Made by a program: the position numbers and the translations under genes
Shown: positions 1 to 24,509 of the stretch, piece by piece
Position numbering within the stretch: position 1 is the stretch's first letter
Layout: every line of letters begins with the position of its first letter
DNA from: Geosiphon pyriformis uo1
Lineage: Eukaryota; Fungi; Glomeromycota
Direction: 5' to 3'
DNA: 24,832 nucleotides
NCBI GenBank assembly: GCA_016748015.1
Contig: JAAOMT010000148.1
Span: forward strand, 1-24,832
The notes under the pieces: model-generated
Told to the model about the DNA's origin: nothing
Database searches by the model: none
Seen by the model: only the letters and a program-made list of their open reading frames with translations

Positions 1-2
1 AA

Positions 3-341
3 TTGCCACCAGCTACCAACGAATTCAAAGTTGGAAATAAAGTTCTCTTACATAGAACTAAGGCTGAAAAACAATGGAGTGGAAAATTTGAACACAAATG
101 GGATGGACCATTTTATATACACGAAATACTAGGCAATGGATCATACAAGTTAAGACTTGATGACAAAATCCTAGCAAAAGTTGCACATGGAGACCGTTTG
201 AAACACTATCATTCCAGAACTAATCCTGAACCATTAATCCCACAAATTGGTACACATTCCCTTTTAATTAATCCTGAAGATATTCCACGAAATTTAGAAC
301 CAATAATTATAATAGAACAACAACCAAACTTGAACACTTAA
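3..341 (+). CDS. pol: C-terminal end of gypsy Pol (integrase GPY/F, SH3-like region); 5' truncated by the window edge
   Basis: FKVGNKVLL...KFEHKWDGPFYIHEILGNGSYKL...VAHGDRLKHY matches the gypsy integrase tail (F.VG..V, KW.GP[FY], H..RLK.Y). The TTG 'start' is an internal Leu. Confidence 0.9.
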   Translation: MPPATNEFKVGNKVLLHRTKAEKQWSGKFEHKWDGPFYIHEILGNGSYKLRLDDKILAKVAHGDRLKHYHSRTNPEPLIPQIGTHSLLINPEDIPRNLEPIIIIEQQPNLNT

Positions 342-474
342 TTTAGCATATTATAACCCCTTTAATAATACAGAAAAAAAATAGTAAATAAATTCAAAAG
401 AAAACCCAAAACCAAAAACAAATAAAAACCCTATACCCAAAAATAATTTCTTTATTCTTTTAGTCATTTTTATC

Positions 475-1182
475 ATGAGTATCCCCCGAAATATTCAACA
501 AATATCCCAAAAATTATTGTTAGCCTTGAGAACACTTCCTGACTTATCCATAACAATTAATGGAAGTCAAATTAATTACATTCAAAAAGAAACCCCAGCC
601 CCAGCAGTCAACAATTCTCAGAATTATCACTCTTATAGAAGAAAAACTAGAAGTCAGTCTGGAAAACAATTACCAGAACTTTTAGAGCAAGCGTTAAAAG
701 AAAACCTCTTATTTGCCCCTATTGACATTTCACCAAATACCACAATCCAACAAAAACTTCTACTACTGCTTAATGAACAAAACAATGAACATACCCTTAT
801 TTATAGATACTTTCATATTGGAAAAACACTTTATGAACGAAAACTGGAACTTGAAGCAACAAACCTCACTCCTGAAGCTATACAAAAACAAATTCATAAT
901 GAATTCAAGACAGCAGCTGGACCAACAAACACTCATTACAAACTTAGAGCAGCTTTTAGACTCTATAATTTGTTCAACACTTGCGAAAATGTCCTACAAA
1001 ACCCAATACTTCAACAAATGAAGATTCAGTATATTGGAAAACTCACAGAACTGAAATTTCAACAATTTTCAGACCAGATCACTTCAATCAATTTTGACTA
1101 CTATCTTAATACCACAGATAGTGCTTGGACTTTGACGGAGCTCAGTCTTGAGGAGGAGATTATGTTACCAGTAGAATTTTAG
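475..1182 (+). CDS. Accessory ORF3 (235 aa, function unknown) between pol and the 3' LTR
   Basis: ATG start, uninterrupted 708-nt frame, and a decayed homologue at ~8625-9153 in the same position of a sister element. It runs through the PPT and stops 20 nt inside the LTR. Confidence 0.85.
   Translation: MSIPRNIQQISQKLLLALRTLPDLSITINGSQINYIQKETPAPAVNNSQNYHSYRRKTRSQSGKQLPELLEQALKENLLFAPIDISPNTTIQQKLLLLLNEQNNEHTLIYRYFHIGKTLYERKLELEATNLTPEAIQKQIHNEFKTAAGPTNTHYKLRAAFRLYNLFNTCENVLQNPILQQMKIQYIGKLTELKFQQFSDQITSINFDYYLNTTDSAWTLTELSLEEEIMLPVEF
1150..1159 (+). other. Polypurine tract (plus-strand primer)
   Basis: GAGGAGGAGA lies 3 nt upstream of the LTR-start TG at 1163. Confidence 0.85.
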
Positions 1183-1370
1183 CTATTAATTAGCATGAAA
1201 TTTTCTTTATAATTCCTATCATTAATTAGCATATATTATTATCGTTTCGAATTTCACTTATTAGTTAATCAAATTAGCAATTATCATCATTTAATCAATA
1301 ACCCGATTTGGACCATAGAAATTGAGATGATCAATTTACACAATACCCTGAACCATATAACATAGCAAAA

Positions 1371-1463
1371 ATTCGCCGAAATTAATGGAAATTGGCCGAA
1401 ATAATTCATAGTTCAGCGAAATAACTTGTAGTTCGCCGAAATGTATCTTTAGTTCACCGAAAT
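1371..1463 (+). repeat. U3 tandem array, 5 units of ~20 bp, core TTCGCCGAA
   Basis: Cores at 1371 ATTCGCCGAA, 1391 ATTGGCCGAA, 1411 GTTCAGCGAA, 1431 GTTCGCCGAA, 1452 GTTCACCGAA. Confidence 0.9.
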
Positions 1464-1514
1464 TCTAGAAAAGAGAAAAAGTGCAAGTTCAAAGACTAGT
1501 ACTACAACAAGTTG

Positions 1515-1627
1515 TATAAAAGAAGAGCTTCTCTCTTCAAGAAAATGTATCTTCTGATATCTTACCATAGTATCTTACTTTAGGTATCTTAATTAGAACA
1601 AATCACTTTTTACATATCTCAAATAAA
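1515..1627 (+). promoter_or_regulatory. Putative LTR TATA box (1515-1521) and poly(A) signal (1622-1627)
   Basis: TATAAAA sits just downstream of the array and AATAAA ~107 nt later. The order fits U3/R, but both motifs are common in AT-rich DNA. Confidence 0.55.
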
Positions 1628-2132
1628 AATTAAATATTCGAAAACCAAATCCTTTGATTATTACACTTGAAATTCTCTCAACACAACTAACATTTTGAAA
1701 TTGATTAGCTACCAATTTCAGTAATCTGTTAGTGACTCCAGGCCTGGATAGAAAACGTTTCCTTGACAAAATTCTATTTCTTTACGTTTCTGTTATTTTT
1801 CCTCTTTCTTTTCTTATCATAATCATTTGAGTAGCCTACAGACAAGATTCCTGTAAAAGAATTGACTTTCACAGCAAAGTAACTACACATTTTTAGTGAG
1901 CTTCCAGACGAGCAATTCCTGGGAAAGAGTTGACGTTTACTACAACATAACTACATAAAGTAACTGGCACGGAATTGGCCATTCCACTTATAAGCCCAGC
2001 GGTTCAAATTATAGGAGATAATTTGAAGATAAATTCAGTTATCGAAGGTTCAACTACTTCCTCTAGTCGTGAATAAACAGCAAAACAACATCAACAACCT
2101 TCAAGAAAAGAGACCAAAAACCTCGGGTAACA

Positions 2133-3420
2133 GTGTAAAGTTTTTGGTGATAACAAATCACCAAGCTTTGGTTTGGCTGCGCAACAAGAAAAGACTAAAA
2201 CATAAATGGATAGCCTGCTGGATACTCTATTTGGATGAATTTGACTATAATATTCAACACCATAAAGAAGCTAATCATCAAAACACTGACACTTTCTCCA
2301 GACTTACCACCAAGTGACAATACAACCTCTCAAACCAAACTAACCTAATTATTAGTAATTTTCTTATAACCAAACACAATAATGGACTTGGACAACTACT
2401 CTGCCTTAATAGAATTTTTGGGTAAAGGACAATATCCACCGGAATACACTCAACAGCAAAAAAAACATTTGTGCAAACAATCAAATTTTTATTTGATTCA
2501 CCAGAACCAATTATACAAAAGAAATAGAAAAGATCCTAACTGCCCCAAAGAATCATAAGATTTGAAGAAAGAGAAATTGTGATTTACAATATGCACACTG
2601 ATCCATTAGCTGGACACTTTGGAAAAACAAAAACAATTCAGAAAACTCTAGCTCGCTATTATTGGCCTATCTTAGAAAAAAACATTGCTGAGTACATCAA
2701 AACCTGTAATACCTGCCAAAAAAAAGGAAAACCCAATTGCAAAGAAAACATTCATCCAATTTCTGTTGGCCAACTCTTTGACAGAATTGGTATAGATGTT
2801 GTTGGACCATTAACAGTAACTCCTAATGACAACAGATATATTATCACAGCCACTGACTATCTTACAAAGTGAGTAGAAGCAAGAGCCACCCCAGATCAAA
2901 CAGCAGTTTCCATTGCTAATTTCATTTATGAAGATATCATTTGTCACTATGGCTGCCCCAAAGAACTTTTATCTGATAAAAGAAGAGCTTTTCTTAGTAC
3001 ACTGGTTGAAGAACTTTGTAGAAAAATGGAAATATGTCACAAACTTTCCTTCCCTTATTACCCCCAAACAAATGGCCTAGTAGAACGTTTTAATAAAACA
3101 CTGTATAAAACCTTAGCCAAAACAAGTAAAGAAACAAACTTATGGGACAAAGTACTGCTTTCAGCTTTGTTTGCTTATAGGACTGTGAATTATGACATAA
3201 CAAGTTATAAACTCTTTTATCTGCTCTATGGACAAATGGCAACACTACCAATAGAAACTGATATTGAGACAATACTCTTTAAAGAAATTACAATAGGGAA
3301 TTACAAAGACATTTTGCAAAGAAGACTTGGTACTATTTTTGACTCATTAGTAGAGGCATAAATAATTGCCTTTGAAAAAATAAAACAGTTCCAAGAGAAG
3401 CTTAAGAAAAAGAAAACCTA
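2133..3420 (+). pseudogene. pol: Older gypsy pol remnant (element B): RNase H end, integrase H2C2 zinc domain, rve core
   Basis: KFLVITNHQALVWL...WILYLDEFDYNIQH...NTDTFSRL (RNase H); HTDPLAGHFG...YYWP...CNTCQ (HHCC); IGIDVVGPL, TDYLTK*VEA, YPQTNGLVERFNKTL (rve). Contains stops and frameshifts. Confidence 0.93.
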
Positions 3421-3424
3421 TAAC

Positions 3425-4291
3425 TTAATACAAAAAATTTGTAAACTGTTAAAAGACTCTTATTATTATCTTATCATTTCTAAACAAATAGATTAATGAA
3501 ACATTTTAACCAAATATTGTATAAATTATTAGCCAAAGTCTTAACTAAATTTGAACAGAAATAGAATATCTTTATTTTATTAATATTATTAGTATATAAA
3601 ACATAAAAACAAAATATTATAAAACACACACTCTTTAATTTAACCTATAAAAGAACAGTAATATTACCAATTAACTTCACAGTAAAAACATATTTAGTGC
3701 AGCCAATTAACAAAAAATACTTTTAAAAAATACTTTAATAAAGAGTCTATATTCTGTTTAATACTTTAAAAAAAAAAAAACAAATAGCAACTACTTATAT
3801 TAAATACTTTTAAGCTTAACAATAAAAATGACATGACAACAAATTGCTGTCAATTACTAATAAATTCAAAATTGAAAACAAAGTTTTTTTATACAGAACT
3901 AAGACTAAAAAACAATGAAATAGAAAATTCAAGCATAAATAAAATAGATTATTTTATATTTACAAAATTTTAAATAATAAATTATATAAGTTAAGACTTA
4001 ATAACTAAGTTCCAGCTAAAGTTATACATGAAAATTGATTGAAGTACTATTATTTTAGAACCAATTTTGAACCATTAATTTCACAAATTGGTACATATTT
4101 CTTTTTAATTAATTTTGAAGATATTTTCTAATATTTAGAATCAATAATTATAATAAAACAATAACTAAACCTAAATATTTAATTTACTATTATTATAATA
4201 TTTTTTTAATAATACACAAATATAAAAACAAAAATAGTAAATAATTACAAAAAAAATATCTCTTTAAAACCAAAAAAATATAAAAACTCTA
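3425..4291 (+). pseudogene. pol: Element C, left part: hypermutated integrase C-terminal half and spacer of family A
   Basis: 3842-4182 is collinear with 1-341 (offset 3841). Upstream, YHF*TNRLMKHFNQIL is a decayed YHPQTNGLVERFNQTL, a second integrase core distinct from that of B. Confidence 0.9.
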
Positions 4292-4432
4292 CAGTGAACT
4301 CTCTTTATAATCACACCTTTTGGTCAGCATATTTTTGGTAACTATAGAGAGATAGAACTATAAAAAATGATTAATATCTTATCATATAATCTATATATCA
4401 CATGTATAATATAATAACTAATTATATATATT

Positions 4433-5988
4433 TTATTTAAAAAAGCTATCTATTTGCAATTGTTTTTTTTTTTCTTGAACTTTGAGAACAGTATTACAAA
4501 TTAATGTTCTTAAAGTTTTAAAAAAGTTTGAACTAACTTTTTTACTATACTGCTCTTTACAATAGTGCAATGTATTTTTAAGTGCAGTTTTACCTTGATG
4601 TGTAGATAGCAAAGACAAAAGTTCATCTTCATCTTCACTTTCTAAATTTTTATTTGCATTAGAATTTTCACTATACTTGTTGTTAATAAGATTTACAATT
4701 TCATTTTCTGAGAAATAAGTGAATAATGGTTCAAACTTGTCAATATTAATGAAGTCTATTGCCAATAGCTTGTCAATATCAACATGCTCAATAAGAACTT
4801 GTACTTCTTATAAGAATTCTTGTTTAATATTTAATAGATGGGCTGGCATTTGACTATTATTCAGAATTCCCATATGACACCAACAGTTTTGGATTGTAGT
4901 TGTTATTACTGCTGACCATGCATCAATTAGAAAGTCAACCATATCCTTTAATGTTACTGTTAATATTGAAATCTTGTCATCATACTAATTAATAAGATAA
5001 AAAAGAAACAACTTTCAATATTGTGCCTTAAAAGATACAATAATTCTTGTATCTAATAATTGCAAATGGGATATTGTATTGGATAGTAGATATCTAATTA
5101 TAATATTAGATAATATAGAAGATTTTCTACTATGAAGACCAGCATTATCAAGCAATAGCAAAATCTTTTTTTTCTTGTGATGCATTTTTTATTTAATAAA
5201 TTAAGCCATTTACTAAAAATATTGGTTTACATTCATGCTTTTGTATTGTAATAATATGTGATTAGAAGTGCATTCATATTAATATTGTAAAAACATTGTG
5301 GCTTTGCAGCTTTGCCAATAATTAAAGACTGCAACTTGATGCCTGTTGCATTACAAGCAAGAAGTATGATAATTTGACTCTTATTATGCTTGGTGCTAAA
5401 AGTAGATCTTGTTGCCAAAGTTGTATTTGGTGGTATTCTAAAAAATATTGCTGTCTTATCAGCATTGTAAACATCATTTAGATCATATTTGCTGATAATC
5501 TCATGCAGTTTCTTTTATTCCTTTGGTGAAATTTCCAAGGGGGCACTGTTTGCTTCATTATGCATCTTAATATAGTGCAAATTATGACGTTTCTTGAACT
5601 TTTCTAATCAACCATTTGATGCTTTAAAGTTATTTTCTTCTGGAAACTTTTTAGCAAACTTAAGGGCTTTTGTTTGTAAAATTTTTCTAGTAAGAATGCA
5701 GTTAGTAGCTAGTGCTCCAAGCATCTATTCTCCTAGTGCATCATTTATCTTTGGAAACATCTCTTTCCTGTCTTTTGTCAATTGACCAGAGTTGCCAAAT
5801 ACATTTTTTTCAATTTATTGGTCTGATTTTGCAAGTAACTTTGTTACAGTAGAGCAGTCAACTTTTAGATTAAATATTTTGATAAGTCTATTTGCTGAGT
5901 AGTTAAGATGCTTTAGTTTGTACTGACAGAGAGCTTTTCTAGTCTCCAAGGAGATTGCTGCTTGCTTTTGGTTTGCATTTTTTAGCAT
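4433..5988 (-). pseudogene. pogo/Tigger transposase (CENP-B-like HTH + DDE_1), inactivated
   Basis: ATG at 5988. Motifs FKASNG*LEKFKKRH, VYNADKT (from DET), LLACNATG, LLLLDNA, LQLLD (from LQPLD) and a C-terminal QLQIDSFF. Several stops and frameshifts. Confidence 0.93.
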
Positions 5989-6156
5989 GTTAATAAGAAC
6001 ACACTTTTTATTGTATTTTGCTTTTATAATGTATTAATGTATCTGTTATGTCTCAAACATCATTTTGCTTTATATTTAATCGGACATGTAAGATGTCTTA
6101 TATCATATAAAGTGCCTCAGATTATAAAAAGCAGCCAAATTATAAAAATGAAGATT

Positions 6157-6369
6157 TTAATCTAACTGTAGGATTCTAAGTGCAAATGACAGATTTTCAG
6201 TAAAAAAAAACCTAATTTCGATAATGCATCTGCAATACTTTTTGTCTCTTACCTCTAACTGATAATTAATAATGAAGGCTGTTAATTTAATCCTCTGTAT
6301 ACTTGCATAATTGCATAGAAGATAGCACAATGTTATGTTGTCAAGCCTCCCAAACACAGCAATGCCTAT
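6157..6369 (-). pseudogene. Captured N-terminal fragment of a PP-loop ATPase (TilS / tRNA(Ile)-lysidine synthase-like)
   Basis: IGIAVFGRLDNITLCYLL...KLTAFIINYQL...ILQLD* reverts by T>C and A>G changes alone to IGIAVSGGLDSMALCYLL...KLTAFIVDHQL...ILQLDW. Confidence 0.72.
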
Positions 6370-6371
6370 AT

Positions 6372-7430
6372 CAATTAGAATATTGATATAAAATACTTTG
6401 TACAATGTCAGGAATATCAGAGTGAAAGTCAATTGCAGTTTTTTAAAAAATGTTCTAATCATTATAAGTCATGGAATTTAATATGTAATATATATAAGCA
6501 TGCAATGGCTTCCAAATTAATGTGGTTATATGTTGTTTCTAAGAAAAATCCCATCTGTTGAAGATTACTTAGAATGGGCCCAAAATAAAACAGATCCTAT
6601 GTTCAGGTTAAAGTATAAATAAGTCTTTTTTTATTTACAAGCAATTATTAACTTTTACACTGGAGTTCGTTTCAATAGGTCTTCATTAAGACTTATGGCT
6701 AGATAAATGTTTGCACCAATTTGGTTTTTTCGGTGCTATTTTATTTACCAATTAATTAAAATTGCTGATAAAGAACATAACTACAATTGAAGCCTAAAGT
6801 TTGCAAGCTGATTCAAGAAAGAATTGTAATTTTTCAATCTAAACTTTTAAATCAACATTAAAGCCATGATGCAATACTTGAAAAAATTAACAAAATGCTC
6901 AAATCGTTAATTTTTTCTACACCTTTACAATAACATTGAAAAATTGCAGTGCATAACTGTATCAAATTTGAAAAATTGCATACTTATTTCTTTAATATTA
7001 TCAGATATTCTAAAAGTGAAATATACAGGTCTCATACATGTCCCAATTTTATTACTGAATCAAATCGATTTTGAGTTCAGATAAAAAAAACACAGTTTGT
7101 AAATCCAAATGTTTTTAATCATGTTTTTTGTAATATTGGCCATAAATAGATATTAAGTAAAAAAATAAAAAAATTTAGTAAAATTGCACGAATGAAAAGA
7201 ATAGACTTTTTTAAAACAAAACAAATTAAGAAAACATTGTTAGGTACTTGGAAACCAATTCTAGTAACAAATGAAGAAGCAGATCATCAAAAAAATATAA
7301 ATCTGTTAATAAAATCACAACTATTATTTATTATTAATTCTCTAATACCTCTTTTAAGTGATCATGTTTTCAAAGCTTATCAAGTTAATTGTGTAACAGC
7401 CTAATAAATATTTTTTAAGAAGTTAGAAAT
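6372..7430 (+). pseudogene. C-terminal fragment of a large hypothetical (possibly transposase-derived) protein
   Basis: Protein-like decayed frames (IDIKYFVQCQ, PSVEDYLEWAQ, YLQAIINF, SHDAILEKINKMLKSLI) continue into ORF 7192-7404. Resemblance to a multicopy Glomeromycota hypothetical family is from recall only. Confidence 0.55.
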
Positions 7431-8000
7431 ATATTGTATTGTGTACAGTTTTGTTTACATTGGGTTGGATGTATTATCATTTATAATTGACATTTTTAAA
7501 ACATAATATGTTGAATTTAGATGCAAATCTCCATTCTGCATGATTATGTTTGGATTATGAAAAGCATTTAACATGGATTTATTTGCCCCAAAAAAGTTGA
7601 TTTTTAATATATCTTTAAAATTATCAATCAAACTTTTACTCGCTAATACTAAATATTGGTTAAATAATGAATATGATTGCTAGTATAGAGCCCTTTTTTA
7701 ATTACAAATGCCAAAGTTGGTGTGAAAATGTATTTATTGGGTATATATCAGAATTTTTATGCTCTGAGTTTTATTATTAGTCATATTTCTCTTTCTAAGA
7801 AAAGGTAAATTCAAACTTCATTTCCAATTGATTTGCTTGAACAATGTCTTATTAACAAACTTATTTCCGAAAGATCCTATTGGACCATTATTCTTGCTTG
7901 TAGATCTGTTAATTCTTTTTCCCAATATAGAAAAAAAGTAATCTTATTAGCCAAAATTTGATCCAGAGTAACTTCATCAATACCTACAGCAACAGCCTTC

Positions 8001-8043
8001 AAAGCATTACTAGTCTCTAAAGCACTACTAGTCTCCAAAGCAC
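8001..8043. repeat. 18-bp tandem repeat (2.4 copies) in pogo cargo
   Basis: AAAGCATTACTAGTCTCT / AAAGCACTACTAGTCTCC / AAAGCAC; encodes ALETSS-ALETSN-AL in ORF 7877-8110(-). Confidence 0.8.
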
Positions 8044-8368
8044 CAAGAGCAGCAGTATTGTACCATATATCAACTATTATTAAAACTCTTATAATATTCA
8101 CAAATAACAAGTCAAATATAATAGTTCTGTCATTGTCTTCTAATGATAATGACAGCTTATAAAGAAGAAGAGTAATTGAATGTTATAATATTTCAGAAAT
8201 TTTGTTTAGTGTTCTATAATTGTTTTCAGAAACTTTTTTAATTTTTTTTACTATCATAAAAAGAATGATTTCCATTGACAAATCAGAAAATCTCCCTGAC
8301 TGTACATGTTCAATTAAATATGAGATGACATCTAATGTTCATATCTAATATTATATGATTATAGTGTA

Positions 8369-8548
8369 ACTATAGAGAGTAGAAATTACTTATATTCTGC
8401 TATCATATTTGTGGAAATAGGGACTATAAAGAGATATATATAGTAAAAATGACTATAAAGAGATAATATTATATATAAATGGTTTTGGTTTTTAAAAAAA
8501 TGTGATTATAAGAACATAGTAACTATAACCAGAAAAACTATAAAGAAA
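8369..8548. repeat. Subterminal ACTATARAGAGA repeats of the pogo element
   Basis: Copies at 8369, 8423, 8452, 8522 (partial) and 8537, plus 4341 and 4357 at the other end. The motif equals the inner half of the TIR. Confidence 0.8.
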
Positions 8549-8556
8549 GTTCACTG

Positions 8557-9153
8557 TATATCCAAAATATTTCTTTATTTTTTAAATTTTTTTAAATTTT
8601 AGTCTTAATTTAATTACTTTTATTATAATTATTCTTTAAAACATTTAACAAATGTCTTAAAAATTAATAATAATATTAAAAACACTTTTTGACTTACTTA
8701 TAATAATTAATAAAAGTTAAATTAATTATACTTAAAAGAAAACTATAATGTTAGTAATAAATAATTTTCAAAATTATTACTTTTATAGAAGGAATACAAG
8801 AAATTCTTCTAGAATTCAATTGTCAGAACTTTTGAAGCAAGCTTTAAAAAAAAATTTTATTTGTTTCTATTGATATTTTACCAAATATCACAACTTAACA
8901 AAAACTTTAACTATAAATTAATAAACAAAGCCATGAATATATATCACTATTTTTAGATATTTTTATATTAAAAAACATTTTATGAACAAAAACTAAAATT
9001 TGAAACAATTAATCTTACTTTTAAAATAATATAAAAATAAATTCACAATAAATTCAAGACAACAGCTAAATCAATAAATACTTATTACAAACTTAGAGCA
9101 GTTTTTAGACTCTATAATTTATTTAATACTTGTAAAAATGTCTTAAAAATTCA
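8557..9153 (+). pseudogene. Element C, right part: decayed ORF3 homologue, truncated before PPT/LTR
   Basis: Collinear with ~432-1005. ATG>ATA at 8625; TTACAAACTTAGAGCAG.TTTTAGACTCTATAATTT is shared with 936-971. Confidence 0.92.
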
Positions 9154-9559
9154 CATAATTAATAATAATTTAAAATTTAGGACAATTTAAAACTCCAACT
9201 TAATTATTTATATAATTAATGATTATTCTGTTAAATAAGTAATATTATATTATCATATAGTATTTTTAATTATAAAAATATTGGTTTGCTTTACTGTAAT
9301 TTTACCAGAATTAGCAGAATTTAAACTTTAATACTTAAGATAACTTATATTAATAGTAAAAAGTTATAAGTTATTGAATATTACAGATATAGTTTATAAA
9401 TATAAGAATTATTTAACTATTAAATTAGTAGATTTAAAATACTATGGCTTATCACAAATTATAAGTTATCTCAGTATAGATTTTTTCAAGTTTAACTGTA
9501 TATATAATTAATTATGACTAAGCAATTAAATAAAATTAATAAGTAAAAGTTTTAATTAT

Positions 9560-11050
9560 AATTATAAAAATATAAAAAAAAAGTTTTTTAGTATTTTTTT
9601 ATTTATTGTATTATAAATTTATAATAATAATTATTATTTATTTATTTTATATGTAAAAATTTAAATTTAAAAAATTTTAAATTTAAGTTAATTTAATACA
9701 AATAAAAAACAAAATACTATTTAAATTTTTAAATTTTTTTTTGTTTTTATTATTAAAATTTTTAATAAAATAACTAAATAATTAATTATCTGAGTGGCTA
9801 GCTACATGTAATTTGTGTGTGAGCTACATTTAATTTGTTCCACTTAGTTTGGTTTTATGTACTAAATAGTAATTGGGCTTTACTCTTTAAATTCGTAATA
9901 AAAAAAAAATTAATTATATAATTTATATATAATGTAAGTTTAAGATATAATAATAGATAATTTATAATTAAAATTATATTATTAATTTTATAAAAAATTT
10001 TAAATTAAACAATTTAATAAAATAAAATAAAATTGTATTTTACAATAAATATATTTTAAATAATTACAATTATTATTTTATTTATAAAAATAATTATTTT
10101 TATATATAAATAACAATATATAATTTATATATTTATAATATATAATAAATAACAAAAAAACAGTATTATATAACAATAAAAAAGTAATTTAACTTTAATA
10201 AACAAATAATTTAATAATAAATTAATATATAAAATTAGTTTATAAATATTTTAATTATTTTTTTTTTTAAAAAGTAATAAAAATAAAAAAAATATTTATA
10301 TTATTAATAAAAAATAATATTTTAATATAATTTCATATTTTATATTGATTTTTTTAAAATTTAAAATTAAATATTAGTTATATTTTTTAGTAAATATTTA
10401 TTTAATATATTTTACAAAAAATTAACAATTATACAAATCAAAAAATAATAATAATAAAAAAAAGTTAAAATAAAAAAAAATAAAAAAGTTAATATTATTG
10501 TATTAATCTTTGTTTTTTAATAAATTTAATTCAAGTTTAAATAAATTTTTACAGTTTTAAGAAGTTTTACTTATATATTTTTTTAAAAAAATCAATAATT
10601 AAATTAATAATCTAATTAATTACCAAGTTAATAATTAAATTAATGATTAAATTATTAATAAATAATTACATTAATAACTATTTTTAAAAATAAAATAGCT
10701 AATTAATAATATTAATAATTAATACATATAACTAATTATAATAATATAAATAATAGAAACTTAAAATAAAAGTTTTAATTATTATAATATTATTGTATTA
10801 ACTAATATATTAACTTATTTATTATTTAAAACTTGAAAATATTTTTTAATTTTTAATTAAATAATAAAAAGTTTTTTATAATTAATAATATTAATAATAT
10901 AATAATATTTTATTTAACAATAATTTCAAAAATAAACACATTTAATTTTAATTTATTAATATAAACAGTTAAAAATATTTAATTATTTAATGCAACAATT
11001 ATATAATTTACAATAAGCATATATTATATTTTAAATTGTAAAAAAAATTT
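9560..11050. other. Extreme AT-rich tract, probably fully eroded TE DNA
   Basis: Roughly 90% or more A+T by inspection, with no recognisable motifs except a small island at 9790-9900. Confidence 0.6.
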
Positions 11051-16332: not shown

Positions 16333-19154
16333 TAGGATTTTAATTAAACTAAACCAATTTGAACTTTGGGTGTTTTTTAAGTTTGGTTTGAATTATGAAT
16401 TAAACTTAAACTAAACTTAAACCAAACCAATTTTTCAAAGTAAATTTAGTTTAAGTTTAGCATTGAATCTTTTTGACAAGTTTAAGTTCAATTTAAGTTT
16501 GGTTCAAAGTTTTACAAACTTGTTCAAATTTGATAAAATTAGAAAAAATATAACTTGTACTATTTGTTTATTAATCATTACTTTGTTTAATTATTATAAT
16601 CAATTAAAAAAGTATATAAACTATATATATATAACAACTCTACTCTCCAACTTACTAAAATAAATTCATTGTTGATATTATTTAATGTTACTAAAGATTC
16701 AAAATTCGAAATAATAAAATTTGATAATCTAAATAATTTAAATATTAATATATTTGGTAAATATAATTTTTAAAGTAACATATAAGATTATTTTAATAAG
16801 TTTAAATAAATAAAAGAAAAAAAAACAGCTAAATATACAGTCTTAAAATGTATACATAAACTATTTTTTTGTAAAACTACAAGTACTATTAAATTTTTAT
16901 GACATTATTTAGAAACTTCTACCAAACAATATATTACAACAAAAAAATATTATAAGAAAAGACAAAATATTCAAAAAAATTGCAAGTTAATTAAAAAATG
17001 GTTTGACAAATGAAATTGCTATTTTTTTTTATAATTTTTGACCAATTTAACTAGAAAACTGCTCTAGTTTTTTGTAGTAACTACTATTAATATTAATAAT
17101 AAAAAACTTTGTGACATAATTACTATTTGGTTTATCAACTACTAATGATTATTTTTTATAGTAAAAGACTCTAAATTAAGAGTAAACACTATTTTTATTA
17201 TAAAATATATCTTTTTTTATTTATACTTATAATATAATAAATATACTTAAGTATTATTAAGTTCAAAATTTCTTTTATATTAAATCTTTGAACATCTTTT
17301 AATAATAAAATTTTTGTTTCTGTTATTACTTATTATATTAATAACAATTAAAATTTTTAATAAACAATAATTGATTTTAAATTAATGAGTAAATAAAATA
17401 ATAAAATAAACATTGTGAATAGATTTTTAAAGTATTAAAAGATTATAGAATTACATTAAAAATATATACATATATTTTTATATAAATTTGAATTAATTAA
17501 TGGTCAATAATAAAATTAACATACTATATAGCATATTAATATTATTTGAAGCTCAGAGTTATTATAATTCTTATATTATTGAAAATTGTGTTTTTTTAAT
17601 ATTGGCTTAAGTTGATTTTTATTATTGTCCCAGACTTAAATTTTTGGTATTAATATTATCTAAAACTCAGAGTTTCTATAGTGTTTATATTATTGAAAAT
17701 TATGTTTTCTTAATATTAATTTAATTGATTTTTATTATTACTTTAAAGCTAAATTTTCAGCCAAAAAGTTTAAAAAAAAGTTATATTTATCTTTTTTTAT
17801 ATGAGTTTATTATTAATTTTATTAGTTATAATCTAATTTTTTTAACAGCTTTTTGCTATTACCCTTAATAATGCCACAAATAATAGTATTTTTATAAAAA
17901 AGTTAATAAGAAAATTAAAAAAAAAACATTTAATAAAACTTAGAGAACTTTTAATTTTAATGCTTTGATCATATTCTAAACTTGGTAATACAAGTGGTCT
18001 TAGATGAAATAAAAAATAATATTTTTAAGATATTTGTTAAAAACTTAAACTAAATATATTTATCTGAAATTTTTTTAATATAAACTTTGTATAAATTAAA
18101 GATTAAGGAACTTAACTCTGTAATTTATACTTTGTTTCAACGTTTTGAACTTTTTAAATATACTTGTAATGCATGTCAAATTAAATATTATAAACCTATT
18201 TTGGATTGTTTTACTCAACAAAATTTTATTTATAATATGGTCAAAAATGAGTTATTTTTTAAATCAGCAAGTTATTTATTTCTGATTCTATATATTTTGA
18301 ATACAAAAATTCTAATTGTAAATTTATAGACATTAAATATTCTTATTAGTCTTTACATTAATTTTTATTAATATGTTATTTTACATAATCAGTAGGCTGT
18401 TTTCAATAAAATTGCTAAATTTCTTGAATTATTTAAAAATATTATGATTAAAATGTCAGCCAGTTTAAATAATACTATTTCTTTAATTATTTTCCTCTTT
18501 AATATTATTTTTAATCACATCAAAAACATAATTAATAATAATGAATTCAGTAAAGCATTATAATCTTAATTGTATTTATTTAGTATTTATTTAATATATT
18601 TAATATTAGATTTATTATTTATTTAACAGTTAAAGCTGCAAGAAAAAAGTTGGTTGAATATTACTTTAAAACAAATACAACTGTAATATTCTATACTGCA
18701 TTAAATCCAAAAAGAAAATTTTATTATTTCATGAAGAGAAAATTTTCGAATAACAATATTAATAAAATAAAAGAATTGTAAATTATTAATTTATTTAAAT
18801 AATTTTATTTTCCAATTCTTACATAATAAATAAATCTTTAAAATATGTACTTTCTTTAAAATAGAGTACATACTGAATATTATACTAACATTAAATGACA
18901 GTTTTTTGTTCAATGTGAATTTTAATAATATTATAGCATTAGTTACATGATCTATATTAAAGACAGACTTTGACAATAATGAAAAAAAAAATTTACAAAA
19001 TTAATTATTATATTTTTAAAAAGATGGCCAATAAGAAAATAAATATAATAGCATAGTAGAAGATATATTACAAAAAATATTTACTTAATTAATATTTTAT
19101 TAATAATTTAATATTTAAGTACATCAAACACAATTTTTTTATCTTATATATATG
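16333..19154 (+). mobile_element. hAT transposon copy 1: 5' TIR, subterminal repeats, transposase pseudogene; 3' end missing
   Basis: TAGGATTTTAAT terminus and AAACTAAACC-type repeats at 16345-16530. BED-finger relic (YTVLKCIHKLFFC...L*HYL), LDCFTQQNFIYNM at 18201 (from LD..TRWNSTY.M) and ALNPKRK (from LDPR.K). Confidence 0.85.
17533..17760 (+). repeat. 114-bp tandem duplication inside the hAT element (also in copy 2 at ~20945-21175)
   Basis: CTCAGAGTT...TTATATTATTGAAAATT at 17552 and again at 17666. Confidence 0.85.
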
Positions 19155-22080
19155 TAGAGTTCTGATGTTTAGTCTGGTTTGATTTAAATTCAATTGAACC
19201 ACCAAATTAAATCAAACTTGAATAGAAAATTTGGCAAATTTTAAACTCAAACTTAAACCAGACTTAAAATTACCAAACTTAAACTATATCTGAATACATA
19301 TAATAAGTTTGGTTTAAGTTTAGTTTAAAGTTCATAAATATGTTTAGATTCAACTATTAAAAACATTATATTATACTATATTATTATTTAATTTTTTTTT
19401 CAATAATTCTTGTATTTATAATTAAAAACACTATACTGTTCTTATAGTTTAAGCACTAAGCAAAACCTTATATCTGTAATTATATTTTTACTTGCAAAAA
19501 AAACATGTTCAAAAGCAATAAATAATTTTTGAATTGCCAAATAATTATAAATCATATATACAAGACAAAAAAATTATGTTTAATGTATTTAAATATCAAA
19601 TTATAAATAAAATGTTAATTTAGATAAATATTTTTTGTAATATATCTTTCATCATGCTATTACATTTATTTTCTTATTGGCCATTTTTTTAGAGATATAA
19701 TGATTAATTTTGTCAAGTTTTTTTTTTTATTATTATCAAAGTCTGTCTTTAATATAAATTATGTAATTTATACTATAGTAATATTAAAATTGTCATTCAA
19801 CAAAAAGCTGTTATTTGATGTTGGTATAATGTCTAGTGTATACTCTGTTTCAAAGAGAGTATATATTCTAAAAGTTTATTTATTATGTAAAAGTTAGAAA
19901 ATAAAACTGTTTAAATAAATTAATAACTTACAATTTTTTTGTTTTATTAATATTGTCATTCGAAATTTTTTTTTTTGCGAAATAATAAAATTTTTTTCTT
20001 GAATTTAATGCAATGCCAAGTATTACAATTGTATTTGTTTTAAAGTAATATTTAACCAACTTTTTTCTTGCTGCTTTAGCTATTACAATAAGTAATAGAT
20101 CTAATATTAAATAAATACAATTGAGATTATAATGTTTTATTAAATTTATTATTATTAACTATGTCTTTGACATAATTAAGAATAATATTAAAGAGAAAAA
20201 TAATTAAGAAGACAGTTTTATTTAAACTGGCTAATATTTTGACCATAATATTCTTAAATAGTTTAAGAAATTTAGCAATTTTATTGAAAACAGCCCACTG
20301 ATTGTGTGAAATAGCATATTAATAGAAGTTAATGTAAGTGCTAATAAGAATATTTAATGCTTATAAATTTGCAATTAGAATTTTTGTATTCAAAATATAC
20401 AAAATTAGAAATAAATAAGTTGTTAATTTAAAAGATAACTTATTCTTAACCATATTATAAATAAAATTTTACTGAATAAAACAATTCAGAATAGGTTTAT
20501 GATATTTAATTTAATATATATTATAAGTATATTTAAAAAGTTTAAAACATTAAGACAAGGTATGGATTGTAGAATTAAGTTCTCTAATCTTTAATTTATA
20601 CAAAATATATATTAAAAAAATTTCAAATAAATATATTTGGTTTGGATTTTTGACAAATAACTTGGAAAAATTATTTTTTATTATATTTAAGATTATTTGT
20701 ATTATTAAGTTTAAAATATAATTAAAGCATTGAAATCAAAGATTTTCCAAGTTCTATTAAATGTTTTTTTTTCTAATTTTCTCATTAATTCTTTTATAAA
20801 AGTACCATTATTTATAATATTATTGAGAATAATAACAAGAAGTTGTTAAAAAAAACTAGGTTATAATAAATAAAATTAGTAAAAAATTTGTATAAAAAGA
20901 AAGTAAGTGTAACTTTTTTTTAAACTTTTTTTTTAAATTTTTTGGTTGAAAATTTGGTTCAAAACAATAATAAAAACTACTTAAGTTAATATTAAGAAAA
21001 CATGGTTTTTAATAATATAAGCATTGTAATAACTTTAAGTCTTAAATGATACTAATACTGAAAATTTAGCTTTGGAGCAATAATAAAAACCAACTTAGGT
21101 TAATATTAAAAAAACACAATTTTTGATAATATAAGCACTATAATAACTTTGAGTTTTAAATAATATTAATATGTTGCATAATATGCTAATTTTATTATTA
21201 GCTATTGACTAATCCAAATTTATGTAAGAATATATATACATATTTTTAATGTAATTTCATAATTTTTTAATACTTTAAAAAATATGTTTGCAATATTTAT
21301 TCTATTATGTTATTTATTTATTAATCCAAAATCAATTATTGTTTATTGAAAGTTTCAATTGTTATTGATATAATAAGCTATAATAGAAACAAAAACTTTA
21401 TTATTAGAAAATATTTAAAGATTTAATATAAAAAAAATTTTGGACTTAATAGTATCTAAATATGTTTATTATATTATAAGTATAAATAAAAAAAAAGAAA
21501 TATTTCATAATAAAGATAATACTTACTCTTAATTTTTGTCTATTCAAAATATAGAATTCTATGATTTTATTCTTAATTATATCAACATAAACAGATTAAG
21601 AAGTAAGATTCAAATATTGAAATATTTTGATTAATTTAAAGTTTTTTACTATAAAAAATAGTTATTAGTAATTGATAAGCCAAATAGTAATCATGTCATA
21701 AAGTTTTTTATTATTAATGTTATTAGCAGTTACTACAGAAAACTAAAGCAGTTTTCTAGTTAGATTGACCAAAAATTATAAAATAAAATAGCAATCTTAC
21801 TTATTAAAACATCTCTTCAATTAATTCACAATTTTTCTGAACATTTTGCCTTTTTTTATAATATTTTTCTGTTGTAATATATATTGTTTGGTAGAAAACT
21901 TTTAAATAATGCCATAAAAATTTGGTAGTGTCTGTAAATTTACAAAAAAATAGTTTATATACACATTTTAAGACTGTATATTTAACTGTTTTTTTTGTTT
22001 ATTCAAACTTATTAAAATAGTTCTATACTTTACTCTAAAAACTATGTTTATTAAATATATTAATATTTAAACTATTTAAT
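19155..22080 (-). mobile_element. hAT transposon copy 2 (inverted): 3' TIR, subterminal repeats, dimerisation domain; 5' end missing
   Basis: 19553-22079 is the reverse complement of ~16727-19154. 19400-19552(-) reads YLAIQKLFIAFEHVFFAS (from YLAI..SS..SER.FS). The terminus TAGAGTTCTGAT differs from the copy-1 terminus by transitions only. Confidence 0.87.
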
Positions 22081-22084
22081 TATA

Positions 22085-24509
22085 AAAATAGCCACTATTT
22101 TTTATTGTTGATCAAAATATCATTGATTATAAAAAACTTACTAGCAATATTCAAAACATATTATATAGAAGTTTAACTATTTTTAATCCAAATTAAATTA
22201 TTAATAAACATACCAGCTGCAAAAAAAAGAACATTCTACTACTGTTTTTAATTCTGTTAGTTTTTGTCACAAACTTAGTATCAATTCAGTATTTACATAA
22301 TTGTTTATGTCTTTTAATCTTATACAAGAATAGATCATAAAAAATTTTTCAAAGAAGAGATAAGAAAACTTTGCTCTAATTCAATTCATTGCACACTTTA
22401 TAATTACTAGAAAGACCAAAATTAGTCATCACTCTAATGATCTTATTTTTGTGTATACTGCTAAAAAATCTGATAAATTTATCATATATTTTGATTTGTT
22501 ATAAGCTAGTCTTCAAATAATGCTAACTAACCAAGTTATATGTTTTACATATATTCTATAAAACCAACCAAGGTTTTCTATTTTTTTAAGAGTATCTTCA
22601 ATCACTAATTAAACAACAAACACAGAAGACTGAATAGATATACTCTTCAAAACCAAAAAATTATTATCACAGAAAACACCAAATTTATTGTATACAAACA
22701 AAATCCAATTAAATAGAACCTTAGAAAAAAAAATTCTGGTAGTCTTAATTAAAGCAATAGATTAAATATTCCTAAAAACCCAATCCCAATTATAAGGTTT
22801 AGGAACTCTTGAGACCCAAGTTTTTTTTCACAAAACAAGCATATTATTAATAAATAAACATGCATTTAACAAATCCAAAAGACACCCCGTTACCCTATTG
22901 TCACTATGCTTTTAAAGTTTGTTAGAAATGCCAAACAAGCCAGCAGTCTTACTATTAAACAGATTATTAATCACTAAAAGCAATTTTTTTATACTGATTT
23001 CTCTTATTATAACAGAAAAAGTATCATCTTTCATGTAATTTAATAGTACATATTGGCAAGCCCAAAGATTAGGCATTATCATAGATATAGTTTGCTTTTT
23101 TATTTAACTCTTCATAATTATATTGATATTGAACTTTACTTCCTTCAGTTTCAAAACCAAGTTACCATCTATTACTAAATAATTTAGAACTATCTTATAA
23201 AAAAGCTGATTTAAAATGCTTCTAATTATATCATCTTTATTTAAACTAAAATTTTCTATATATTTCTTAATCACCTTCTTGATAGATACTTTTTTAGCTA
23301 TTCTTAACTTATATATTTTGGATCTTTTGTACTTCTTACAAACTAATAACAAATGTTTAATAATATTTATTAACTTTTTACTATTCTGAATTATATGTAC
23401 AATTATGATAGTTTTATTTTTATTCAAAGTTGATTATTTTTTAATGAGACAATTAAATTTAAGCACATTATCTAAGCTTAACTTCTTAACAATTTTGGCA
23501 ATTAACAATTTCAACCCAAAAAACTTAAAAAACTGTCTGTTTTTTAAACATTAAAATTTACTAAACTAATATCTTAAAAATATTTTATCAGTTAACTTTA
23601 TTATTATTTTCTTCAGCAAAATTCACATAGCATCCAAATTACCATGAGTCTAAACATCTGAAAACTTATCTTCTATTACCAAAAGCTTGACAAAAAAGCA
23701 TTTTTTAAATTATATCTATTTTGTACTATTTGTATTTTTAATTTTAAACTTCCAATAATCTTTGTTAGCTTGTTTGTACAAGTCATTTAAACAAACATTT
23801 AAGAGTTCATTCAAACCAATTAACACTAAAACAGTCTTGTAATTAATGTTAAAAAATGTAAATACAGAATCAATTTTATGATCAGCAACTACTAATGATA
23901 AGCTTTCACTAATAAAATGTAATTTAAAACTTTTTCAACACCTTTTAAATTGTTTTAAGTTGAAGCTTTAACTAATGAATGTTTACTAAATAAGTTAACC
24001 AAACCCAAATCCAAACAAAACTTGAAATTTGTACTCTTTCCAAACTTATTTTCATTGAAATTTCCATTTAAAACCACAAAATTGCTGGAGTTAACAGCTT
24101 TAACAATAAGAAAGTTAACTCTTAAAGCTTGATCAAACTTAGTCTTAGCAGAAGCACCAACATATAAACCCAAAATTATAACTGAAAGCTTATTTTTGAA
24201 AAAAAGCCATATTAAAACAATATGACCTGAAACTTTTTCTATTTTGGAAACATATTAAGCCAAAAAATTATTTATAACAATAACTACTCCAATACTGAGA
24301 AAACTTTATTTTATACCAGATGTAAAAATTTGTATCTCTTCAAACTTATTTGTAATTTAAGGCTTGATACTAGATCTTAGTTTTGTTTCTATTATAAAAG
24401 AAATCATGTTATTCAAATTCACATGTTAATAAACAATGTCTTCCTGCTTGGCAAGAATATTAATATTTCTAATATTACAAGTAACAAATTTTCATACCAA
24501 GTTTCTTAT
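22085..24509 (-). pseudogene. LINE ORF2: APE endonuclease + reverse transcriptase, 3' truncated
   Basis: KFVTCNIRNIN and IIETKL (APE start), VVLNGNFNE (from GDFN), LN*SKVFLSLL (from QG..SP.L), AGMFINN at 22197-22217 (from FVDD). Confidence 0.9.

Follow-up and report, generated by a model that had tools for sequence, protein, structure and literature searches.

A sense, soluble accessory ORF between pol and the 3' LTR of Ty3/gypsy retrotransposons in Geosiphon pyriformis

Fungal gypsy elements are usually described as carrying gag and pol only. Accessory genes at the 3' end include lentiviral nef, foamy-virus bel1/tas and HTLV-1 tax; the products of tas and tax act on their own LTR, Tax through 21-bp repeats in U3, and nef and bel extend far into U3. 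Errantivirus env and the env-like ORFs of plant elements are, like the gene described here, sense ORFs that follow pol. In the plant Ty3/gypsy elements Grande (gene23), RIRE2 and Retand, and in the fungal element Boty, the stretch from pol to the 3' LTR holds a conserved extra ORF (PMC7264820). Like ORF3, the subject of this study, these ORFs are found in many copies and have no established function, although a regulatory role has been proposed, and GENE23 of Grande is nuclear (PMC7264820). Unlike ORF3, which is sense, soluble and ends on a motif at the polypurine tract (PPT), the non-env ORFs of these four elements are antisense, while the sense ORFs covered in PMC7264820 are env-like with transmembrane domains. 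Overall, the non-env extra ORFs on record are mostly antisense and of plant origin (PMC7264820). A further likeness, one of general properties, is to CERV of the Caenorhabditis elegans element Cer1, an LTR retrotransposon whose accessory protein is likewise novel, soluble and nuclear (PMC10309623); CERV is shown to export genomic RNA and comes from a spliced mRNA, whereas splicing and RNA export are conjectural for ORF3. Searches of the open literature listed no paper that describes ORF3, and a repeat-library entry could exist.

The window, by which we mean the whole stretch of 24,832 nucleotides that was analysed, begins inside the pol of one gypsy element (element A) and continues into the remains of a second (element B). 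Its principal features, compared where possible with L001, a metagenome locus described below, are as follows.

3..341, plus strand: 3' end of element A pol, the integrase C-terminal SH3_Tf2-1 region (Pfam PF24626, E 1.4e-5, under the cut-off; identity to the corresponding part of L001 61%)
447..463, plus strand: pyrimidine tract ending in AG, judged from the sequence a possible splice acceptor (AG 11 nt before the ATG)
475..1182, plus strand: ORF3, 235 amino acids, with a predicted N-terminal helix and beta-hairpin (low confidence), a PY/basic linker, a helical core and a short tail over the PPT
658..1110, plus strand: ORF3 core domain, residues 62-212, predicted all-helical (AlphaFold2 pLDDT 90.1, pTM 0.85, 30 sequences)
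1137..1169, plus strand: conserved cis block of GGAGCTC motif, PPT (1150-1159) and LTR start (31/33 nt identical to L001, with equal identity at all codon positions)
1163..1889, plus strand: LTR, TG...CA, 727 nt (5' edge demonstrated, 3' edge probable; TATA at 1515, AATAAA at 1622)
1369..1463, plus strand: five 14-nt near-palindromic units in U3 (TTCG-N-CGAA core; spacing 20, 20, 20 and 21 nt), candidate regulator sites
1890..2060, plus strand: PBS-like site and leader following the LTR (contigs of 3/3 runs diverge at about 2060)
2090..4291, plus strand: element B, comprising a broken RNase H, integrase, a decayed pol end and spacer
4292..8556, no strand: pogo/Tigger-like DNA transposon whose insertion separates ORF3 of element B from its pol (terminal inverted repeats, TA duplication; DDE_1 E 4e-4, under the cut-off)
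8609..9149, plus strand: decayed ORF3 relic of element B

The initial annotation of this DNA had proposed an intact sense ORF of 235 amino acids after pol, and this proved correct: positions 475-1182 are open throughout, and the ATG lies 133 nt past the stop of the gypsy pol frame that matches SH3_Tf2-1. Not one of 2000 shuffles of the region yielded an ATG-initiated ORF of this length, the longest reaching 135 amino acids. That element A is of the Ty3/gypsy type is indicated by the pol in which the window starts, the downstream PPT and the LTR beginning with TG, and the order of pol domains is that of Ty3/gypsy elements both in L001 (RVT_1, RT_RNaseH, Integrase_H2C2, rve, SH3_Tf2-1) and in element B (RNase H, then integrase). 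The lack of a transmembrane helix noted in the annotation was also borne out. Hydropathy over 19 residues peaks at 0.95 in the window copy, and a transmembrane-length hydrophobic segment was absent from all seven ORF3 proteins checked (peaks of 0.85-1.33), indicating that ORF3 is not an env. The N-terminus is not strongly hydrophobic, and cysteines are few (1-3) in the proteins tested, whose isoelectric points range from 5.2 to 9.2, the family thus not being uniformly basic. ORF3 therefore shares position and orientation with env and env-like ORFs but differs from them in having no transmembrane segment, few cysteines and a small size.

A protein search with ORF3 returned 208 matches, the best 120 of which are, without exception, named hypothetical proteins of G. 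pyriformis. The nearest database record, P0002, is such a gene model, assigned to this fungus by its source, and has a C-terminus that differs from that of ORF3 and is apparently spliced. Two groups appear among the matches listed, with lengths of 235/221 and 239/225 amino acids and a mutual identity of about 66%. When 1.84 billion representatives were searched, 35 matches were obtained, which include a third Geosiphon family and the metagenome proteins P0147 (29%) and P0148 (31%); P0150 and P0152 were dropped from that search as repeat-driven chance matches. A profile of distant members collected 52 proteins, mostly from a fourth Geosiphon family, and in seven of these 52 the pol SH3 region is part of the same gene model as ORF3. 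In the four Geosiphon families the protein is 19-68% identical to the ORF3 of the window, and intact homologs occur in metagenome records at 26-30% identity. Among 150 candidate stretches from a scan of metagenome contigs one independent locus, L001, was confirmed, in which RT, RNase H, integrase and SH3 are followed by a 316-nt spacer, an intact ORF3 of 230 amino acids (28-30% identical to that of the window), a PPT and an LTR. Linkage to pol is thus seen as DNA in the window and in L001, and as fused gene models elsewhere; being present in many copies and several families and linked to pol, ORF3 is a conserved additional ORF. Most copies are decaying, and NCBI models label copies as hypothetical host proteins. 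Scans of viral and of prokaryote contigs gave no match to ORF3, and tblastn of the core against phages gave chance matches only. A similar helical domain may be present in Rhizophagus proteins; no such match was among the best 120 of the 208, among the best 120 of 225 in another search, or among the matches listed from the representatives and from the profile. In one gene model, P0123, a dUTPase domain (PF00692, E 4e-12) is joined to an ORF3 copy; the pol of this lineage may carry a dUTPase, or the model may be chimeric.

The annotation had regarded ORF3 as a family trait on the ground that a diverged sister element ('sister C') carries the same ORF. The trait itself stands, on the evidence of the other families and of L001, but sister C does not testify to it, being a relic with 75% identity to ORF3, eight stops and three frameshifting gaps rather than a separate element with a working copy. 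Window positions 1-433 match 3842-4291 and positions 459-1000 match 8609-9149, both at 74-75%, and as the 4.3-kb insert at 4292-8556 lies between the matching blocks, sister C must be the severed 3' portion of element B. Of the 126 changes in the relic, 88 are C>T or G>A, and the number of synonymous changes (40, with 33 expected) is what neutral decay would give. Thus, the ORF occurs twice in the window, and the pair provides no evidence of conservation.

Several other observations concern the decayed remainder of the window. Neighbouring elements have decayed to very different degrees: the observed/expected ratio of CpG is 0.5 in element A, 0.14 in the pol of element B and 0 in its 3' part, and GC content drops to 5-11% at 9500-11000. 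The pogo-like insert contains a 103-amino-acid frame (6157-6468, minus strand) that weakly matches PP-loop (E 0.019) and may be what is left of a passenger fragment after decay. Positions 16730-22078 form a very large inverted repeat with arms of about 2.4 kb, 82-88% complementarity, a spacer of about 400 nt and 114-nt tandem units within each arm; it may have arisen by inverted duplication or be a foldback element in decay. At 23104-24254 (minus strand) two frames, with no match in Pfam, resemble by eye the endonuclease-like region of the gene model P0151, and are likely to represent a decayed LINE-like element.

The coding sequence of ORF3 is under purifying selection. This was read from the difference table of a single run (X1), in which the best 40 of 115 differences between the window copy and other copies, picked by the tool on support, comprise 23 synonymous changes, 17 replacements and no stops, whereas the same changes placed at random would give 10.5 synonymous changes and 3.3 stops (P=5e-5). 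The resulting omega-like ratio of about 0.26 is rough, because the rows were picked on support and sequence context is outside the model, but it is not near 1, the value that the annotation had set against its own proposal. No frequent indel was seen inside ORF3 in run X1, and the decayed relic at 8609-9149 served as the neutral control. Between the window and L001, identity over ORF3 residues 1-218 is 0.41/0.54/0.42 by codon position, against 0.27, 0.31 and 0.33 expected from composition, and 29 of the 54 identical residues in the body of the protein are encoded by different codons, in an alignment made from the proteins, which favours such a pattern. ORF3 is an old lineage gene of fungal Ty3/gypsy elements, and the initial description of a non-env, soluble and family-wide accessory ORF is upheld by the homologs in several families, the purifying selection and the lack of a transmembrane segment.

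At its 3' end ORF3 reads through the purine tract at 1150-1159. Thirty contigs of run X1 stop at 1163 with unlike flanks (agreement 0.43), placing the LTR edge at this position and the stop of ORF3 20 nt inside the LTR, as the annotation had proposed. The analogy with nef and bel that it built on this overlap is not supported. The portion of ORF3 in U3 amounts to six codons and the stop, occupying 20 nt in the window and 32 nt in L001, with sequences that diverge after M-L-P, and no substantial protein-constrained part lies within U3. Over the last 17 aligned codons, identity to L001 is 0.77/0.77/0.77, and eight of the nine identical residues have identical codons; equal identity at all three codon positions indicates that the constraint is on the DNA. 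A collection of 223 proteins, some of them truncated, fused or unrelated, was sorted by ending: 107 share the frame of the window ORF3 and run into the LTR, 93 end otherwise, and 23 have the ending F-x-G-A(-Q-F). Read in another frame, the window motif gives an end of this last type, which stops at the start of the PPT, and the 23 proteins thus appear, to judge from their sequences, to end on the same motif in that frame. The proteins of the fourth family suggest that its ORF3 stops before the LTR. Nef and bel contrast with ORF3, which uses 20-32 nt of U3 and whose families vary in the frame in which the motif is read. The overlap is likely to be incidental, reflecting a compact gene that ends on a conserved cis element, with which the residues encoded over the PPT are probably carried along. 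The GGAGCTC-centred motif just upstream of the PPT (window 1137-1149; L001 3091-3103), which is conserved at the DNA level between these distant elements, may act in cis during reverse transcription or in the handling of RNA.

The annotation had also described a helical C-terminal half and a basic patch (YRRKTRS). The former agrees with the AlphaFold2 model of the core, which is all-helical, while a full-length model from five sequences is poor (pLDDT 56, with the N-terminal helix and hairpin at about 50). The patch is present but only loosely conserved; the linker varies except for a Pro-Tyr pair, after which come basic residues or prolines, an arrangement reminiscent of a PY-type nuclear localisation signal. 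Pro-Tyr is found in seven of nine aligned rows, with all six groups represented. In the two closest families Pro is retained in 79 of 125 motif-carrying proteins, the others having Leu (25), Ser (19, as does the window copy) or Phe (2), substitutions that C>T decay would produce. Within the core, a conserved G-x-x-N turn connects the predicted helices 108-127, 133-148 and 153-167; its G149 and N152 are invariant in 9/9 aligned rows, and basic and polar residues follow it. In the model these three central helices and the turn resemble a helix-turn-helix (HTH).

Attempts to place this core in a known family produced several HTH leads, all weak and each below the threshold of its own tool. No Pfam family exceeded its cut-off, and DUF1016_N was reached at E 0.12 by one of 30 ORF3 members (12.9 bits against a cut-off of 32.8). 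Chosen after that scan, a 7-sequence DUF1016_N alignment scored 25.6 against ORF3 in hhalign, above all 40 block-shuffled nulls (mean 14.9, sd 2.3) but with an HH probability of 21%. A DUF3102-like set scored 18.6, a value reached by two of 40 nulls and nearly equalled by the reversed control, and a ParB HTH alignment gave a null score of 8.9, reached by 25 of 40 shuffles. As positive controls between families known to be related scored only 11.7-17.7, the test has little power. A single DUF3102-like protein matched the ORF3 profile at E 0.75. Atlas rows for ORF3 include DUF6192 (0.89), HTH_3 (0.87), DUF3102 (0.86) and DUF1016_N (0.84), and above them, as the top named row, stands a closterovirus coat protein (0.90-0.92), a hint at RNA and not DNA as the ligand, with a translational repressor family at 0.89-0.90; the rows share 117-141 of 256 features, whereas true members usually share 170, and of 100 shuffled proteins 4-10 score as high as 0.9. 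With the core model, VIA paired Spo0J (Z 3.8, rmsd 4.8, 95 aligned), sigmaF (Z 3.8, rmsd 2.4, 57 aligned), KorB (Z 3.3, rmsd 4.7, 95 aligned) and ParB (Z 3.3, rmsd 5.5, 85 aligned) in a list whose top Z is 4.5. In the fold search with this model all 48,161 chains stayed below Z 5, as did the 997 of a second look, and at E 0.001 nothing in BFVD matched; such an outcome is neither proof of a new fold nor exclusion of any family. The full-length model reached at best Z 5.7 and had no Foldseek match at E 0.001. Sequence searches of the PDB gave nothing useful, and in PHROGs the only match was phrog_23683, to which no function is assigned (12 of 30 members, all from the two closest families; best E 4e-4). 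DUF1016_N (the YhcG N-terminal domain), DUF3102 and ParB/KorB share with ORF3 a motif order of an aromatic-x-x-IG helix, a second helix, a glycine turn and a third helix, and HTH_ParB weakly matches two DUF1016 proteins. Unlike ORF3, however, these domains are prokaryotic and occur as parts of nucleases or partition proteins, and we file ORF3 in none of the DUF1016_N, DUF3102 and ParB families.

The LTR of element A contains a candidate target for such a protein. The near-palindromic units in U3 are spaced by about two helical turns, and the array ends about 50 nt upstream of the TATA box. The unit pattern matches eight times in the window, where 0.12 matches would be expected; seven of the eight fall within the array when both strands are counted, and none of 100 shuffles equalled this. 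The LTR repeat of L001 differs, consisting of three exact 9-nt copies at irregular spacing, and host factors could equally bind the near-palindromes. The 3' end of the LTR is placed at 1889 because a CA there is followed by the PBS-like site, which has no complementarity of at least 7 nt to the LTR and thus gives no sign of self-priming. The divergence of contigs at about 2060, in three runs one of which (X3) is probably DNA, indicates that gag-RT has likely been deleted and that the LTR is likely common to elements A and B in tandem. Summed contig depth in run X1, which is not copy number, is far higher over 1451-1540 and 1891-2030 than over ORF3; these peaks may reflect motifs shared with other families.

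The reading that we prefer, at a probability of roughly 0.4, is that the ORF3 product binds DNA in the nucleus and thereby regulates the LTR of its own element. Translated from a spliced or subgenomic RNA, the protein would rely on its PY/basic linker for nuclear entry and, probably as a dimer, bind the 20-nt-spaced near-palindromes in U3, where it might raise transcription or hold off silencing by methylation; CpG methylation of transposons is reported for the related fungus Rhizophagus irregularis (bioRxiv 10.1101/2021.03.30.436303). The array well beyond chance expectation, the HTH leads and the PY in the linker argue for such a regulator. Against it stand the range of isoelectric points, the sub-threshold nature of the HTH leads, the RNA-virus coat protein at the top of the Atlas rows, the different and irregular repeat in the L001 LTR and the lack in L001 of a splice-acceptor-like AG at the matching place. 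A more specific version, distinctly unlikely as a whole, would have the lineage encode a sequence-specific factor for transcription or against silencing, with a prokaryote-type HTH like that of DUF1016_N/ParB as its origin, which binds, and co-evolves with, the CpG-containing palindrome array of its own U3.

It could be argued, on the basis of the same Atlas rows, that ORF3 binds the RNA of the element and serves in export, translation control or particle assembly, in the manner of Rev or CERV. The coat protein and translational repressor rows point in this direction, as do the conserved DNA/RNA motif beside the PPT and the precedent of CERV as a novel nuclear export factor of an LTR retrotransposon (PMC10309623); the rows, however, share fewer features than true members usually do and have scores that some shuffled proteins attain, and we consider RNA binding possible but rather improbable. 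We would give similar weight to a protein that acts through protein contacts, whether it assists integration targeting or nuclear import as a cofactor or inhibits a host silencing protein. This would suit the mixed surface charge across families and a pol end at which no chromodomain match was reported, and the best-covered VIA rows include two helical domains associated with chromatin, the CHD1 C-terminal domain (Z 4.2, rmsd 3.0, 80 aligned) and Orc6 (Z 4.2, rmsd 5.7, 83 aligned). Such Z values are background for helical domains, however, and the clustering of basic and polar residues after the conserved turn speaks against such a role.

Two further explanations fare much worse. An atypical env or movement protein, spreading the element between nuclei, hyphae or partners, would account for the env position and sense orientation of ORF3 and for an in-frame hydrophobic stretch (hydropathy 1.67) just upstream of its ATG in the window copy. 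In L001, however, the frame opens at the ATG itself, and with hydropathy of at most 1.33 in the seven proteins and one to three cysteines this role is very unlikely. The decay of most copies, and their appearance in NCBI as hypothetical host proteins, would be expected of a neutral passenger, such as a piece of host sequence picked up by the element or a chance ORF that multiplied along with it, but the excess of synonymous changes, the failure of shuffles to produce such an ORF and the intact homologs in metagenome records have largely refuted this view.

ORF3 is a real, previously unannotated accessory protein family in a known kind of element. As a sense, soluble and selected accessory gene that has been kept across families with identities as low as 19-30%, it represents a new accessory protein family, for which the U3 array is a candidate target. 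For annotation, the finding means that at least 120 gene models of this fungus recorded as hypothetical proteins are copies of a transposon ORF. LTR elements make up 41.2% of the G. pyriformis genome, according to PMC11952901, and a self-encoded activator or anti-silencing factor, if real, would therefore bear on their expansion. If ORF3 does act on its own LTR through the palindrome array, a fungal retrotransposon would possess a positive feedback loop similar to those of Tax and Tas, and the growth of LTR elements to 41% of the host genome might be explained by it.
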